Positions 25,591-31,582 are shown, counted from the stretch's first letter. The stretch: DNA of 64,000 bases from Longimicrobiales bacterium (GCA_965116905.1 OZ220732.1:3872001-3936000), one strand, 5' to 3'. Translations and numbers: made by a program. Notes: a model not told the origin generated them from the sequence alone.

Positions 25591-26295
25591 TCACCAGTCC
25601 ATGGCGTCCGGCTCGGGCTCGTAGATCGCGAACCCCTTGCGGGTGATCAGGAAAGAGCCCGTCAGGACGAGCGCTGCGCCGACCAAAGCACCGCCGATGG
25701 CGATCGCCAGGGTGTGGTCGCTGGCCATGATGGCCTGGATCAACCGCAACGGACCCCCGAAGAGGCGGTCGACGAGGTACCCACCCGCCATGACCGCCCC
25801 CAGAGCAACCATCGCACCATAGGGAACCAGCAGCTTGATCTTGAAGCGAAGCACAAGCGCAAGGAGCACGGCCGACATCACCGAGAGCATGGTCCAGGCT
25901 CCCAGAAAGGCGGCGATGATGATGCGGATCAAGCCCAGGTCTCCCAGAAACGCGGGGCCCACGATACCACCAGCCGCAGCCATCGGCACTGCTCCCAGCG
26001 CCGCAATAAGGACCAGCGCCGTTAGGCGGGCTCCCGCAAGCGTCAAGGGGGTTACGGGGAGTGTGGTGAGCACCTCCAGGTTGCCCGTCATCCTGTCCTG
26101 AAGCGCATCAAACGGTATCTGCATGCCAAGTGCGCCACCAACCGCAGCTAGCCCGAAGCTCAGCACAGACGTTGGGGATTCCACCATGAGCGAGAAGACC
26201 ACAACCGCCAAGAGGAAGACACCAATTCGCACCAAGCCCTGGCGGAAACGTCGCAACTCGAGTCCCACCAGAGTCCAATAGGGTTGATCAGTCAT
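25591..26295 (-). CDS. ABC-2 type permease
   Basis: About 6 TM segments; D...G.LE.L.TLPV motif; start overlaps ATPase stop. Confidence 0.8.
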   Translation of the reverse strand: MTDQPYWTLVGLELRRFRQGLVRIGVFLLAVVVFSLMVESPTSVLSFGLAAVGGALGMQIPFDALQDRMTGNLEVLTTLPVTPLTLAGARLTALVLIAALGAVPMAAAGGIVGPAFLGDLGLIRIIIAAFLGAWTMLSVMSAVLLALVLRFKIKLLVPYGAMVALGAVMAGGYLVDRLFGGPLRLIQAIMASDHTLAIAIGGALVGAALVLTGSFLITRKGFAIYEPEPDAMDW

Positions 26296-27004
26296 CGGAT
26301 TCCAAGGCTGAAATGAGGATTTGCGAGAGGGGAGCACCGGGATCGCGTTCCGCCAGCTCCTTCGTGGTGACGTCTTCGAGGATCCGTCCCTGCCGCATCA
26401 GGATGACGCGCTCGGCAATGAACTCCACGTCTTCGAGGATGTGACTGGAAAAGAGGACGAGACGATCACCGCCCGTGGGTGCGCAATCGCCGATGATCTT
26501 CAGTAACTCGCGGCGCTTGACCGGATCGATGGCCGTGGTGGGCTCGTCGAGTATGAGGACAGGTGGCCGGTGCGCCTCGGCCGTTACCAGAGACAGCTTG
26601 ACCGACATGCCCCTGGAAAGCGTGCCCACCTTCGACGCGCCCGGAAGCTCAAGGCGAGTGAGGAGTTCCTGTTCGTAGTCGCGGTCCCAGGTGGGGAAGA
26701 AGGTCGAGAGGAACCGCAGGTGCTCGTCGATGGTCATCCACCCGAATCCGAGCAGGCGTTCAGGGAGAAACCCGATGCGCGCCCTGACCCCCGGCAACTG
26801 GGCCTTGATGTCGCCTCCGTCCACCTCCACCCGGCCCTCGTATTCCCGAAGCCGACCCGCAATCGCCTTGAGGGTCGTGCTCTTCCCGGCCCCGTTCGCG
26901 CCAACCAACGCAACGCGTTCTCCCGGATCGACGGTCAAGTCCATCGGCTCCAGGAAGAAGTTGGAATACCGGACGCTGAATCCCCGCAGCCTCACCCCCG
27001 CCAT
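26288..27004 (-). CDS. ABC transporter ATP-binding protein
   Basis: GANGAGKST, LSRGM, LILDEPT, SSH; start ATG 27004. Confidence 0.92.
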   Translation of the reverse strand: MAGVRLRGFSVRYSNFFLEPMDLTVDPGERVALVGANGAGKSTTLKAIAGRLREYEGRVEVDGGDIKAQLPGVRARIGFLPERLLGFGWMTIDEHLRFLSTFFPTWDRDYEQELLTRLELPGASKVGTLSRGMSVKLSLVTAEAHRPPVLILDEPTTAIDPVKRRELLKIIGDCAPTGGDRLVLFSSHILEDVEFIAERVILMRQGRILEDVTTKELAERDPGAPLSQILISALESDD

Positions 27005-27048
27005 GTGGCAACCCCCACGCCGCCCGCCCACCCTCTCTCTCGTCCGCT

Positions 27049-27729
27049 CTACAATGTGACCCATGCTCGCGCTCCTGAAAAGGCCACCATCACGCCCCAG
27101 AAGAAAAGCGCCAGTCCGAGAGACGGCCGGAGCTCGGGGCCGTCGCACCGACGCAGAGCAATCACGAGGAACCCGAACCAGAGGAAATGACCCACCGAAA
27201 AACTCTGGGCGACCGCTAGCAGACCCGGGTTTGTGGCTGGGACGAAGGCAGCCACCCCCAGGTTGGCCTGGAGATCCGCGGGCGAGGTCGGGCTCCCACC
27301 TGTGGCCCAGTGCAGATAGAGGGCCTGCAACACGCCCTGCGCCGCCAAAATGGCCTCTCCATATAGCAATACGGAGAGCATCGGTCGGACGCGCCGCCGC
27401 GAGTTCGCCAGCACAAGCACAGCCCAACCCAGGGCTGTGAGAAGCCCCGCCTTGAGCAGGTGAACCAGGGGCGACATAACCGCTACTACCCCCAGTACAA
27501 AGAGAGTCCCCTGGGCAATCTCCGGTCCCTGGGTTGCCATGGCACTCAATACCAACGGCCGTAGCGAGAACGCCGCTACTACAGAGAACACCCATCCGAT
27601 CACCAGGGGTGGTACGATAGGGCGATGATCGCGAATGTCGTCCAGGCTGGGAACGAGCATGTTAAGAAAGTGCCGCAGCCGTCCCAGTATCCGTTGCATG
27701 CCTCCGGCGGCCCCCTCTTGTCCACTCAT
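27049..27729 (-). CDS. Yip1-like multi-pass membrane protein
   Basis: About 5 TM segments, 226 aa; ATGA overlap with redoxin stop. Confidence 0.6.
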   Translation of the reverse strand: MSGQEGAAGGMQRILGRLRHFLNMLVPSLDDIRDHRPIVPPLVIGWVFSVVAAFSLRPLVLSAMATQGPEIAQGTLFVLGVVAVMSPLVHLLKAGLLTALGWAVLVLANSRRRVRPMLSVLLYGEAILAAQGVLQALYLHWATGGSPTSPADLQANLGVAAFVPATNPGLLAVAQSFSVGHFLWFGFLVIALRRCDGPELRPSLGLALFFWGVMVAFSGARAWVTL

Positions 27730-28268
27730 GACTTGGATTCTCCCATTCCGGTGATTGCCGCGACGTTCTCCGCAAGCATGTTCCTGTTGCTGCGTCCGAC
27801 TCGTATGATCCGGACCGTGTCGGTCTCGTCGACCCAAAAGGTCGCCGGCACCGCGTTGACCCCCAGAGCCCTGCCCACACTTCCGTCTCGGTCGTGTACC
27901 GTCCTGGCGCGAAGCGATGGGGGAACCCACGTCGCGCTTTCCATGACCGACCTGGGAGATGCCACCACCCAGACCGCTACACCGCCCGCGTCACCACCCA
28001 CCACCGACTCCCACAATCCCAACTCCGCCTCGCAATGAACGCACCTGCGATCCACATAGATCAAAGCCGTCGCACCAGCGCCGCTCGCCCGGTATGTCCA
28101 CATCTCCGACTCGCCGATCCAACCCGAGACGGGTGGAAGCACCCAGGGCGGAGCTTCGGGGCCATCCCCTTTCCCGCCCATCCACACAAATGGCATAATC
28201 GCTAGACCCGAAACACAAGCCGCCACCACCAATGCTGCAGTCTTCTGACGTATCGATCGTTGTGGCAT
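27726..28268 (-). CDS. Membrane-anchored thioredoxin-fold redoxin (TlpA-like)
   Basis: N-terminal TM, CVHC motif, GVNAVPAT cis-Pro loop; GGAGG before ATG 28268. Confidence 0.8.
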   Translation of the reverse strand: MPQRSIRQKTAALVVAACVSGLAIMPFVWMGGKGDGPEAPPWVLPPVSGWIGESEMWTYRASGAGATALIYVDRRCVHCEAELGLWESVVGGDAGGVAVWVVASPRSVMESATWVPPSLRARTVHDRDGSVGRALGVNAVPATFWVDETDTVRIIRVGRSNRNMLAENVAAITGMGESKS

Positions 28269-28286
28269 CTCAATGACTCCTCCCAC

Positions 28287-28323
28287 AGGGGGACCCGGAC
28301 GCAGCCGCTGCCCGGGTCCCCCT
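28287..28323. terminator. GC-rich stem-loop between the precursor array and the redoxin gene
   Basis: agggggacccgg / ccgggtccccct, 12-bp perfect inverted repeat with inner gcagc/gctgc; no clear U-tract on the minus strand. Confidence 0.6.
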
Positions 28324-28341
28324 CCGCTTTCCCGTTTTGGC

Positions 28342-28641
28342 CTAGAACGCGACGTAGCAAGTGACTGCGCACCGCACCAGGTCCACAATGTCACTTTGTT
28401 GGCTGGCAGAAACGCCGACAAGGCACCGCACGCACAGTCCCTGCAATATGAACAGCGTTGGGATTGTGCCGATATACTGGCCGCCGATAACGCGCTCGGT
28501 CATCTGTGTCTCGAAGAATGTCTCCATCGAGCCCGTGTCGGAGTTCACACCGTACCCTGCACCTGATCCGCCGCTGGTCGCTAAGACTGCGACGATAGCC
28601 GTCACCCCCAAGCCTCGGACGATCCTGTTTGTTGTCCTCAT
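28342..28641 (-). CDS. Precursor peptide 5 (signal + VIGG + CVRC-X17-CAVTC)
   Basis: 99 aa; shares the architecture of four neighbours. Confidence 0.8.
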   Translation of the reverse strand: MRTTNRIVRGLGVTAIVAVLATSGGSGAGYGVNSDTGSMETFFETQMTERVIGGQYIGTIPTLFILQGLCVRCLVGVSASQQSDIVDLVRCAVTCYVAF

Positions 28642-28680
28642 CTTACCCCCTGTCTTTCTCTACACAAGAAGACCAGATCC

Positions 28681-28974
28681 CTAGAGATCATCTGCAAAGG
28701 CCACGCCGCACAGGAACCCACAACCCATCAAAGCGATGGCGCCTGCTCCACCCGACACAACCGTTGTCGCTAGACCCCCTGCAGCGCATCCTATGCATCC
28801 CAACTTCTTCCACCATCCCTGCCCTTGAATCACGGTTGAAGTCGATGCTGCCACCGAACGCGTTTCCAACGCCACATCCAGTTCGGTACCGCCTCCTGCT
28901 CCTCGCAGTGACCCCGCCATCAGCACCGCGACCATTACGGCTCCCATGAACCGTCTATTCCGTAGTCTCTTCAT
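28681..28974 (-). CDS. Precursor peptide 4 (signal + IQGQG + CIGC-X21-CGFLC)
   Basis: AGGAGG RBS overlapping the upstream stop; ATG 28974. Confidence 0.85.
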   Translation of the reverse strand: MKRLRNRRFMGAVMVAVLMAGSLRGAGGGTELDVALETRSVAASTSTVIQGQGWWKKLGCIGCAAGGLATTVVSGGAGAIALMGCGFLCGVAFADDL

Positions 28975-28984
28975 CGTTTTCCTC

Positions 28985-29281
28985 CTAGAAGTATGTAGCT
29001 TTTGCAAGCTTCCCACATGCAAAACCGCAAGCAATGCCCAGGAAGCCTCCAACGCCAGTTATTGTTACCAGAACGATCGTGCCGGCGATGCACCCCCAGC
29101 ACGCCAGATTGAGGCCCGTGTTCTGAGCGCCCACGACGGTTTCCTCCAACACCATGCTTGTCTCGACCGCTCTGGTACCGTCGACGGCGGCTTGTGCTTG
29201 CCGATTCCCCGCGGTTGTGGCGTTCGCCAGCGCAACCACGGTCAAGACCCGTAGCACTGTTGTAATGCTCGTACTCTTCAT
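28985..29281 (-). CDS. Precursor peptide 3 (signal + VVGA + CWGC-X20-CGFAC)
   Basis: ATG 29281, purine-rich RBS. Confidence 0.85.
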   Translation of the reverse strand: MKSTSITTVLRVLTVVALANATTAGNRQAQAAVDGTRAVETSMVLEETVVGAQNTGLNLACWGCIAGTIVLVTITGVGGFLGIACGFACGKLAKATYF

Positions 29282-29319
29282 TTGCGCCTGCCTTTCCCTT
29301 TTGTCGCCAAGACCGATGA

Positions 29320-29655
29320 TCATCCGAACCCGAGTGTACAGACAAAGGAGCACGCCCCTACAGCAAACGGAGCCACCGACGCCAATGCTATTAGCCCGAG
29401 GATGCTCGCTCCGCCGCCTACTAGAATGGCTCCGGCGCACCCGAGGCAGCCTACCCTGGCAAGTGCCTGTCCGCCTTCGACCGCGGTAGCCTCTCGCTCG
29501 ACGGCCGTTCGAGCAGATCCCTGCACGTGAATGAGGTCCGCTGGCGTAGCCGCCCGCCCGCCGAGCGCATGCGGCTGCATCGAGCCGCTCGCGAGAGCAA
29601 GCAAGATCATCATCGCCGTGCCGACGTGTGCCTGTTTATGCGTTTTCATACTCAT
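29320..29655 (-). CDS. Precursor peptide 2 (signal + TAVEGG + CLGC-X28-CSFVC)
   Basis: GGAG upstream; several nearby Met codons (29667-29649). Confidence 0.85.
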   Translation of the reverse strand: MSMKTHKQAHVGTAMMILLALASGSMQPHALGGRAATPADLIHVQGSARTAVEREATAVEGGQALARVGCLGCAGAILVGGGASILGLIALASVAPFAVGACSFVCTLGFG

Positions 29656-29672
29656 GCTCATCTCCATGTCGA

Positions 29673-29963
29673 TCAGAAGATTGTCTCGTGACACGCGGCC
29701 ACACACCCGGCGAGCGCAACTGTCGAACCGTTTACAGCCATTGCTGCGATGATCCCGCCGGTCTTGACCAGAACGATGCCCGAGACGACGCAACCAAGGC
29801 AGATCGTGAACGCTCCCCATCCCCGACCCTCAACCGCGGTCGGTCCTCCGTCTCCCAACGCGGCGACCGGTGGCCCCCCGGTCAGCTGGGCTCCCTGTGC
29901 CGCGAGCAGCGCAAGGCAGAGCGCGTACACGGTGGCCCGCATTCGTCCTTTCCTCATCATCAT
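29673..29963 (-). CDS. Precursor peptide 1 (signal + TAVEGRG + CLGC-X28-CVAAC)
   Basis: AAGGAGGAGG RBS directly upstream. Confidence 0.85.
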   Translation of the reverse strand: MMMRKGRMRATVYALCLALLAAQGAQLTGGPPVAALGDGGPTAVEGRGWGAFTICLGCVVSGIVLVKTGGIIAAMAVNGSTVALAGCVAACHETIF

Positions 29964-30025
29964 CCTCCTCCTTCAGCGATTGTGAACAGAGCCGCAACGC
30001 CCCTCGCCGCGGCCGGAACCAGGGT

Positions 30026-30664
30026 CTACGCCGCGAGCACGATCGACTCGCCGGACCAGATCTCCTGGAATGCTTCTTCGCTGATCGAGTAGCGCCCCGC
30101 CGTGGGATCCACCACGGTCAGACGACCGGACGGCGATCGTCCGGTAACCGTCACGAAATGATTCCGGTTCACCCACGCGATGAACGGCGTACGCGCGTCG
30201 CGCAGGTCTGCCCGCGTGAGGCGTACCAGCGTGAGCGGCAGACCGAATCGGCCAGCGGCCCGAATCAGGCCGCCGGCGGTGGTTCCCCTCGGCCCCATGT
30301 CCGCGAGCACGGCGAGCGTGTCCGTCGAAGGGACCTCGACGCCGACCGCGCGCATCATGTTGGCGAGCGCAGCGGGTCCGCAGTCATTCAGGGCGGACTG
30401 GAAGACGACCGAGTCATCTCCCAGAAACTCCGCATTCAGCCTGGCCAGATCGACGCGTGCCGCGAGTCGCCCCATGCGGGGCAGGTCGGAGACTGCAAAC
30501 GCCGCGAGCAAGATCGTCGCGGGCACCAGCACCAGGGTCAGGATCGCTGTGCGGCGGCGATATGCGACGCGGTGCTCCGAGGGTGGTTTCGGACGGCAGG
30601 ACGCTTCGTGCCGGCTTTCAGGCATCCGGGGGACTCCGTTTTCGGTGGGTCGTGACTCAATCAA
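30026..30664 (-). CDS. Stand-alone C39 family cysteine peptidase with N-terminal TM anchor
   Basis: FQSALNDCGPAALA (Q,C), NHFV (H), VVDP..GR (D); start may be ATG 30625. Confidence 0.88.
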   Translation of the reverse strand: MIESRPTENGVPRMPESRHEASCRPKPPSEHRVAYRRRTAILTLVLVPATILLAAFAVSDLPRMGRLAARVDLARLNAEFLGDDSVVFQSALNDCGPAALANMMRAVGVEVPSTDTLAVLADMGPRGTTAGGLIRAAGRFGLPLTLVRLTRADLRDARTPFIAWVNRNHFVTVTGRSPSGRLTVVDPTAGRYSISEEAFQEIWSGESIVLAA

Positions 30665-30882: not shown

Positions 30883-31509
30883 CTACAGCGTCTTCAGGAC
30901 CTCCAGAATGTCCTCGTTGGTGGGCCGCACCCGGTAGTCCACCTCCACGAAGCGGTACCGCACGACGCCTTCCTTGTCGATCACGTAGGTGGCGGGATGC
31001 GGCAGAGGCCGGTTGGGAGGCGCGTTTTCGTTGAACAGGCCGTAGCGGTCGATCACGGCGTGGTCCGGGTCGGAGAGCATGATGAAGTCGGGGGCCATGC
31101 CGTCGCTGGCGGCCACCCGGTCGATCATCAGCTGCATTCCCTCCTCGTCATCCACCGACACCGTCACAATTTCGGTCTGGTCCTTGAGGTCGTCGGGCAA
31201 CAGGGCTCTCAGCTCCACGAGCTGACTGGCGCAGAACGGTCACCAGTGGCCCCGGTAAAAGACGAGCACGACGTTCTTGTCCCCACGGAAGCCCGAGAGC
31301 GCCACAGGGCCGCGGTCGAAGGACTCCAATGTGAACAGCGGCGCTTCGTCCCCGACAGCCACGCGCTCGATGTCGGTGCCCGGCAGGTCGTGACCGTCGG
31401 CCGGACCCAGGTCCTGTGCGCGAGTCGGGGTTGCGGTGGCAACCAGCCCCAGGAGGACCGGCAACGCGGCGAATCGCACGCCAGCCAGAAATCGAGTGGA
31501 TGGGAACAT
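30883..31509 (-). CDS. AhpC/TSA-like redoxin, probable selenoprotein (UxxC), secreted
   Basis: In-frame TGA at 31242-31240 in VFYRGHW-U-PFC joins two track ORFs; signal peptide ending TRA-Q. Confidence 0.85.
31209..31225 (-). promoter_or_regulatory. Candidate bacterial SECIS hairpin
   Basis: UCAGCUC-GUG-GAGCUGA starting 14 nt after the UGA. Confidence 0.55.
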
Positions 31510-31582
31510 GTTTGTGGTCCGTTGCAAAGTGGCGGATTCGGACCGGGTACACGCCCGGTTCCGGGACACCTATGTTAATCGC

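Follow-up and report, generated by a model that had tools for sequence, protein, structure and literature searches.

A conserved C39 peptidase and peptide-pair cassette of Gemmatimonadota, a candidate two-peptide bacteriocin-like system

The ten-gene cassette described here lies on the minus strand (30625-25591) of a 64-kb stretch of a Longimicrobiales bacterium genome (GCA_965116905.1 OZ220732.1:3872001-3936000), referred to as the window, whose coordinates are used throughout. The ten open reading frames (ORFs), all on the minus strand and in the order given by a previous sequence-only reading, begin with a stand-alone C39 cysteine peptidase of 199 aa (30026..30625), identified with 81 bits against a Pfam cut-off of 22 (PF03412), whose ATG start at 30625 was preferred over a TTG at 30664 given the upstream GGAG and orthologues of equal length. 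Five small precursor peptides follow, namely the conserved members p1 (96 aa, 29673..29963; predicted 49-aa core after VEGR, 29673-29822) and p2 (111 aa, 29320..29655; predicted 49-aa core after VEGG, 29320-29469) and the variable extras p3 (98 aa, 28985..29281; predicted core 28985-29125), p4 (97 aa, 28681..28974; predicted core 28681-28818) and p5 (99 aa, 28342..28641; predicted core 28342-28479). The remaining genes encode a membrane-anchored thioredoxin-fold oxidoreductase (redoxin/TlpA-like, 27726..28268) with a CVHC motif at residues 76-79, a Yip1/YknW-like multi-pass membrane protein of 226 aa with weak family matches (27049..27729; start better set at 27729), an ATP-binding cassette (ABC) transporter ATPase of 238 aa (26288..27004) and a fast-evolving ABC-2 type permease of 234 aa (25591..26295).

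Overlapping junctions had been reported between these genes; only two were found, of 4 nt between redoxin and Yip1-like genes and of 8 nt between ATPase and permease genes, and the others are gaps of 10-73 nt. None of the ORFs between the flanking genes encodes a radical SAM, YcaO, LanM or glycosyltransferase protein, as first stated. The G+C content of the cassette (62.6%) and of the precursor genes (59.9%) is below that of the genome (67.7%). A promoter and terminator scan of the cassette was uninformative, with two and five sites, respectively, against 0.9 and 3.9 expected by chance.

Precursor statistics were compiled from 121 sequences of 32 genome loci, a set to which loci L066, L069, L073 and L077 plus L080 and L082 were added and from which a contig-truncated precursor (L066), a broken p1 (L097), a non-double-glycine peptide (L087) and duplicates were left out; a p1 was observed in L087 yet went uncounted, no start having been assigned to it. 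The window precursors have the claimed lengths, core cysteine spacings (2-28-3 in p1 and p2, 2-20-3, 2-21-3 and 2-17-3 in p3 to p5) and glycine sites (VEGR before G, VEGG before Q, VVGA before Q, IQGQ before G and VIGG before Q, from p1 to p5). A CxxC-x(12-35)-CxxxC motif stands at the end of 8 of the 36,227 stop-to-stop segments of the genome, and because five of these eight are the neighbouring precursors of the cassette, their clustering is not a matter of chance; the inner span of the remaining three is hydrophilic. Four cysteines in the CxxC..CxxxC arrangement were found in 97 of the 121 cores and only two cysteines in the other 24, so that the two disulfides per core initially proposed cannot be universal. 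In the two-cysteine cores, the offsets fit the C1/C3 positions, whereas the spacing (20 in 15 of 21) fits C2-C3.

The predicted cleavage site, [VILA]-x-G-x followed by Q or G, is present in 114 precursors, 4-24 residues ahead of the first cysteine, compared to 12.2±3.2 (maximum 23) in 1000 shuffles, a comparison in which the pattern was chosen after seeing the data and the 121 sequences are related. Position -4 is V or I in 113 of these 114 precursors, position +1 is G in 65 and Q in 49, and the glycine sites are conserved across the precursors of homologous loci. The site lies 45-68 residues into the precursor, behind a signal-like segment, and positions -7/-8 are not L/E. By the n/h-region pattern on which signal-like N-termini were judged, the n-region is net positive in 116 of the 121 precursors and every precursor is hydrophobic over a stretch close to its start; a polar spacer with a grand average of hydropathy (GRAVY) of about 0 then leads to a core of 33-58 aa with a median GRAVY of 1.3. 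A fifth cysteine of p1, C16 in the signal helix (window 29916-29918), is invariant in 13 genus sequences and not in distant ones.

The cassette is real and conserved, and its peptide family is undescribed, as had been presumed: Pfam and NCBIfam scans of 62 precursors found no credible family, a PDB sequence search with the p1 profile found no match and an ESM Atlas search gave best scores of 0.80, which are leads only. The p2 profile weakly matched a cytochrome c in the PDB (E 0.003), which was rejected given the absence of CxxCH from the cores (0 of 97 with four cysteines).

The five divergent precursors originally listed are all present but are not equals, the core of the system being p1 and p2, with p3 to p6 as variable extras. 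The p1 family (57 sequences) has invariant G46, G48 and four cysteines and the p2 family (64 sequences) invariant G61 and four cysteines, and the glycine at position -2 of the site is invariant in both alignments. The two families are paralogous (hhalign P 98.9), and in 29 of 32 loci their genes lie next to each other; the other three loci have the uncounted p1 (L087), an insertion-broken p1 (L097) and, where a contig ends, a divergent pair (L095). Outside the genus, seven of nine loci contain p1 and p2 only, and the extras expand mainly in the source genus. Extras also occur ahead of p1 or even upstream of the C39 gene (L080:7588-8588, L082:7642-8731, L116 and L119), three of those in L080 being recent duplicates with near-identical leaders, and in L087:9033-9666 (minus strand) two additional signal-peptide, cysteine-rich ORFs without a glycine site are located between p2 and the redoxin gene. 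In the structural model of p2, a disordered spacer joins the signal helix to a core of three helices predicted with confidence (helices 62-79, 85-94 and 96-110; predicted local distance difference test score, pLDDT, of 77-88 in the core). The model amends the helical hairpin suggested earlier to a kinked three-helix hairpin with putative disulfides. The model of p1 is similar but unreliable (pLDDT 51). Foldseek found no match for the p2 model, and VIA-align retrieved generic helical hairpins (best Z 5.1, root-mean-square deviation 4.2, 51 aligned residues).

The C39 peptidase has a basic N-terminal stretch followed by one hydrophobic helix (residues 27-43). Its catalytic residues C82, H156 and D173 and the oxyanion Q76 are invariant in 14 diverse orthologues, and the best PDB match is the PCAT1 peptidase domain (E 5e-14). 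In 13 of the 14 orthologues there is more positive charge before the helix than after it; because of this bias and of the positive-inside rule, by which the positive flank of a membrane helix stays on the cytoplasmic side, the catalytic domain is predicted to reside in the periplasm. The redoxin label was sustained by a Redoxin match in 11 of 11 orthologues but the window copy itself is below threshold (E 9e-4). Its CxxC is invariant among orthologues, being CVHC in the window and CPHC or CPYC in six of the seven distant orthologues shown. CPHC/CVHC/CPYC-type dipeptides favour oxidation. The anchors of both proteins are consistent with a predicted function in the periplasm.

As regards the last three genes, the Yip1 assignment is weak, with two of ten orthologues matching (best E 0.006) and the YknW family at E 0.025. 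The ATPase is well supported (Pfam ABC_tran, 96 bits), its best NCBIfam match being PmtA, below the model cut-off, and the permease is of the ABC-2 type, with ABC2_membrane_5 detected in 9 of 16 orthologues (best E 1e-7).

A full-length stand-alone C39 orthologue was found in 12 of 36 other genomes of the same genus, plus one cut at a contig end. In all 12 genus loci retrieved, the genes follow one another in the same way, with four to six precursors, and are flanked by genes for a peroxiredoxin-like protein and an M28 peptidase; the Yip1-like gene is single copy in 20 of 53 genus genomes, each of which also has the C39. In a draw of 401 genomes of the phylum, with eight candidates scored per genome, C39 matches occurred in 29, of which 21 are stand-alone (open frames of 205-260 aa) and eight are paralogues with the size of peptidase-containing ABC transporters (PCATs). 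Among the ten stand-alone C39 genes outside the genus, nine have p1/p2-type precursors directly downstream, and eight of the ten loci run on into redoxin, Yip1-like and ATPase genes, with one contig ending early and L096 being a different cassette. These cassettes belong to genomes of the same family and of four others in the class. The overall order is C39-p1-p2-(extras)-redoxin-Yip1-like-ABC ATPase-ABC-2 permease. Among the best 19 of 80 metagenome loci, some of them near-duplicates, 18 have the same start and those long enough reach the permease. Homologous C39/redoxin loci, in sum 32 genome loci and these 18 metagenome loci, do carry the small cysteine-containing ORFs, and a profile search of 1.84 billion representatives returned 102 matches, all but one being small proteins of the precursor design.

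The ratios of non-synonymous to synonymous substitution rates (dN/dS), calculated between the window and three close relatives with pooled, non-independent pairs, were 0.25-0.49 for the precursors (0.14 for the p3 core), 0.42 for the permease, 0.15 for the ATPase, 0.13 for the Yip1-like gene and 0.14 for the flanking M28 gene; all are below 1 and the precursors are therefore coding and constrained. Higher dS in p2 to p5 (0.6-1.0) than in the C39, ATPase and M28 genes (0.36-0.49) hints at a possible exchange of alleles. Among five cassette-less genomes examined, the site is empty in two (G023 and G010) and in the other three (G009, G021 and G026) holds other small secreted cysteine-rich ORFs with propeller-like proteins, so that, judging from its contents, it is a hot spot for secreted-peptide loci in these relatives. 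Signal-peptide, cysteine-rich ORFs beside NHL/6-bladed propeller-like proteins lie in L101:1818-6238, L102:2022-4282 and L103:948-2990, one with an ABC transporter. Disruptive insertions occurred in two lineages, in p1 of G130 and in the Yip1-like gene of G030. Because of its patchy presence, the empty or swapped site, these insertions and the faster-changing precursors and permease, we regard the cassette as an accessory interaction locus.

The upstream peroxiredoxin-like gene was rejected as a member of the cassette since it is present in five of five cassette-less genomes tested. This AhpC/TSA gene, predicted to encode a secreted protein (window 30883-31569, minus strand), has an in-frame TGA at the U-x-x-C position, with TGA in 12 of 12 relatives, and a tRNA-Sec is encoded in the genome; it is likely a selenoprotein gene that standard gene calling cuts in two. 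Elsewhere in the genome, 17 tRNA genes are arrayed within 2 kb (G000:C1:1296478-1298432). In one metatranscriptome run, contigs span the cassette and its flanks alike, although DNA may be present and such contigs cannot show transcription. In a contig of one run, 382 unlike letters replace the p2 region (window 29305-29689), and in the same run contigs of the flanking genes are about 99% alike and those of the cassette 91-94%, possibly coming from different genomes.

With the class II bacteriocins and microcins exported by PCATs, the cassette has in common the C39 fold with its catalytic residues, a site with V/I at -4 and with G at -2, and small Gly/Ala-rich cores with disulfides, which in the cassette are predicted. 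It also shares two adjacent peptide genes with class IIb two-peptide bacteriocins, which need both peptides for killing and have GxxxG-type helix-packing motifs; [GA]xxx[GA] motifs number five in the p1 core and three in the p2 core, counted in a Gly/Ala-rich background with no control. Glycocins of the sublancin type have a glycosyltransferase and a PCAT exporter in their cluster, both absent from the cassette. Unlike in PCAT systems, the cassette C39 (199 aa) is a protein separate from the ABC transporter, the leader lies inside the precursor, after the signal-like segment, rather than being an N-terminal L..EL helix that serves as export signal, and there is neither a membrane-fusion protein (MFP)/TolC pair nor a dedicated immunity gene, whereas class II microcins need PCAT, MFP and immunity gene (PMC10233263). 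Sec-dependent class IIa bacteriocins carry a plain signal peptide (PMC3546714). In its predicted working the cassette would thus resemble class II or two-peptide bacteriocins, from which it is set apart by its exporter and by the position of its leader; it belongs to the double-glycine/C39 kind and is not a separate category.

A plasmid search with the C39 peptidase led to the locus hmcDCBAI (annotation of NC_005245) of haemocin, which is named a bacteriocin in PMC8873416. As in the cassette, its precursor has a signal-like start, a spacer, a double-glycine site and a four-cysteine core, and the locus includes an ATPase and a stand-alone C39 with an N-terminal hydrophobic helix that matches the cassette C39 profile (E 1e-18); residues 10-74 of the haemocin precursor weakly match the cassette precursor profile (E 4e-4). 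In contrast, haemocin has a single precursor with a hydrophilic, cationic 40-aa core (GRAVY -0.45, net +6, CxxC-x12-CxxC) and a canonical leader helix, a beta-barrel-like HmcD (weak match) and an immunity gene, HmcI, and its locus is devoid of redoxin, Yip1-like protein and ABC-2 permease. In L106:1482-4290, signal-like starts were seen on the haemocin precursor and its C39, and HmcD resembles an outer-membrane barrel. Haemocin, as its sequence suggests, may be matured in the periplasm by a presumably exported C39 rather than be exported by a PCAT. The combination of features was earlier thought to be without precedent; the peptide family is unmatched, but a signal, a double-glycine leader and a stand-alone C39 already coexist in the haemocin locus and an exported C39 was published for Fap (PMC5557850).

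FapD is a periplasmic, catalytically required C39 whose target is unclear in that report, and FapD, FilB and PA2778 are stand-alone periplasmic C39 proteins (PMC5557850), as the cassette enzyme is predicted to be. They act on proteins of fibres or of the envelope, in systems with an outer-membrane barrel, whereas the cassette C39 adjoins clear small candidate substrates; its scores with the FapD, FilB and PA2778 models were far under the cut-offs (FilB 19 bits against 475, FapD not among the matches). In L159:3517-4911, two DUF6627 (PA2779-like) proteins with Gly-Gly ahead of a hydrophobic C-terminal tail lie beside a lipoprotein-like C39. EntV of Enterococcus faecalis has a signal and a propeptide removed outside the cytoplasm and needs a DsbA disulfide (PMC6606811), and SDP of Bacillus is a 42-aa disulfide peptide against which YknWXYZ, an ABC system that includes the Yip1-family YknW, protects (PMC4887032). 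Both differ from the cassette in being single peptides of monoderm hosts, with non-C39 proteases and a MacB-type transporter, and neither matched the cassette precursors in family scans. Halocin C8-like proteins (TIGR04450) likewise have a hydrophobic, cysteine-rich C-terminal peptide, but the cassette precursors are below 125 aa and have no N-terminal immunity domain; only a trace match to p4 was obtained, in one of 62 precursors (9.8 bits against a cut-off of 27), and no conserved C39 neighbourhood is reported for that family in 10.64898/2026.07.27.741052.

Two further loci deserve mention. L096:10089-13130 (minus strand) is a separate cassette with a signal-bearing, canonical double-glycine, cysteine-core precursor, a large permease, an ABC ATPase and a lipoprotein-like C39. 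L131:572-5662 (plus strand), a metagenome locus of lower GC, has a thioredoxin-like gene, an anchored C39, a permease, an ATPase, a membrane protein and two hydrophobic cysteine-containing precursors with signal and glycine site that are unrelated to p1 and p2, thus the same toolkit with another peptide pair; its last membrane gene resembles the Yip1-like gene by eye and was rejected as such, a profile match being absent. Our literature searches, mostly without subscription papers or supplements, found no description of the cassette, no paper joining Yip1, C39, thioredoxin, precursor peptide and ABC transporter, and, among the 20 papers listed for it, no use of the phrase 'stand-alone C39 peptidase'.

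From these features we infer export, cleavage and activity of the peptides, as follows. The basic-then-hydrophobic N-terminus would take each precursor through Sec, to be cleaved or kept as a tether, and the membrane-anchored, periplasm-facing C39 would cut after [VI]-x-G-x, releasing cores of 33-58 aa that start with G or Q, the latter possibly cyclising to pyroglutamate. The CxHC/CxYC redoxin would make one or two disulfides, most simply nested. ATPase, ABC-2 permease and Yip1-like subunit may pull the greasy cores from the inner membrane, providing both release and self-protection, and p1 and p2 would be the active unit, acting jointly on membranes, with the extras varying its range. We hold this maturation route (Sec export, periplasmic cleavage and disulfide formation) to be quite probable and, should it apply, an antibacterial role at membranes to be moderately favoured; that the cassette as a whole is a Sec-exported, periplasm-matured, two-peptide bacteriocin-like membrane weapon is the best of the explanations considered, at about even likelihood.

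Several observations weigh against this interpretation. The cores are near-neutral rather than cationic (net charge -4 to +5, mostly -2 to +2) and their hydrophobic moments are low (0.03-0.24), no region has a dN/dS above 1 (the highest being 0.73, in the p1 core), and the canonical upstream leader helix (L..EL) is absent from the precursors by position counts. The charge bias of the redoxin anchor is clear in seven of 11 orthologues with four ties, and the best NCBIfam matches of this protein are DsbE and ResA, which are usually reductants. The cassette has no small dedicated immunity gene, and a search with the Yip1-like profile found no transporter-only (orphan immunity) locus among the 53 genus genomes. 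No outer-membrane channel or MFP is encoded in the cassette, which leaves crossing of the outer membrane unexplained by it. The cysteine spacing of p1 and p2, fixed across the whole class, would fit a structural role too.

This last point, together with the fixed order of p1 and p2, the uniform hydrophobicity and low moment of the cores and the missing immunity gene, agrees with an arrangement in which the same maturation yields the building blocks of a fibre or coat at the surface or of an assembly embedded in the membrane (pilin- or hydrophobin-like), the extras being minor subunits. The named exported C39 proteins FapD and FilB do serve fibre systems (PMC5557850) and FilB is weakly matched here. 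We nevertheless consider such an assembly unlikely, given that no secretin, usher or barrel gene was seen in the loci examined, that the FilB score is so distant from its cut-off and that the site is swapped with unrelated secreted-peptide cassettes. It is improbable that the mature peptides serve as signals or as effectors aimed at a host, with the extra copies, expanded mainly in one genus, tuning them to a host such as a sponge: the sole RNA-labelled run with the stretch is indeed a sponge metagenome and EntV acts on eukaryotes (PMC6606811), but the cassette lacks any conserved receptor, kinase or regulator, cores of 45-50 aa with a GRAVY above 1 would diffuse poorly and the two-peptide form is found in other families and metagenomes too. 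Slightly more improbable is the binding of a metal or cofactor by the four cysteines, kept reduced by the redoxin in the manner of ResA/CcmG, with the ABC unit delivering the ligand. The DsbE/ResA affinity of the redoxin, the CxxC motif and the weak cytochrome c match of p2 point in that direction; the lack of CxxCH, the 24 cores with two cysteines only and active sites that by the dipeptide rule suit an oxidant point away from it, and leader removal and the hypervariable extras would go unexplained. Least probable is a split PCAT, with an N-terminal helix that is not a Sec signal, cytoplasmic processing and the ever-present ABC unit as exporter, since the C39 is itself anchored, with a positive-inside bias in 13 of 14 orthologues, the permease is of the ABC-2 type instead of a PCAT membrane domain and signal-like N-termini occur in all precursors.

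Returning to the bacteriocin-like interpretation, we propose more tentatively, at somewhat less than even likelihood, that the cassette represents an undescribed type of two-peptide membrane weapon, present class-wide in the Gemmatimonadota, whose leaders are removed independently of export, and that one genus has enlarged it to a set of as many as six exchangeable peptides. What exported C39 peptidases cut, and at which site, is still an unanswered question, the target of FapD being unclear (PMC5557850). The cassette C39 adjoins its putative substrates, the cut site is marked by conservation in more than 100 sequences and core masses are predictable. With two disulfides, the predicted monoisotopic masses of the cores are 4746.39 (p1), 4517.35 (p2), 4588.31 (p3), 4283.05 (p4) and 4857.47 Da (p5), less another 17.03 Da in p2, p3 and p5 should Gln1 cyclise. 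Because the enzyme sits beside conserved-site substrates, the question can be addressed directly in E. coli. The precursors fall outside all Pfam and NCBIfam models and would therefore escape mining by profiles. The cassette would also constitute a library of short, predicted disulfide peptides that need no tailoring enzymes, from a scarcely cultured phylum; it is of value as a set of enzyme and putative substrates open to testing, and for the conserved pair of peptides that it adds to this little-studied group.

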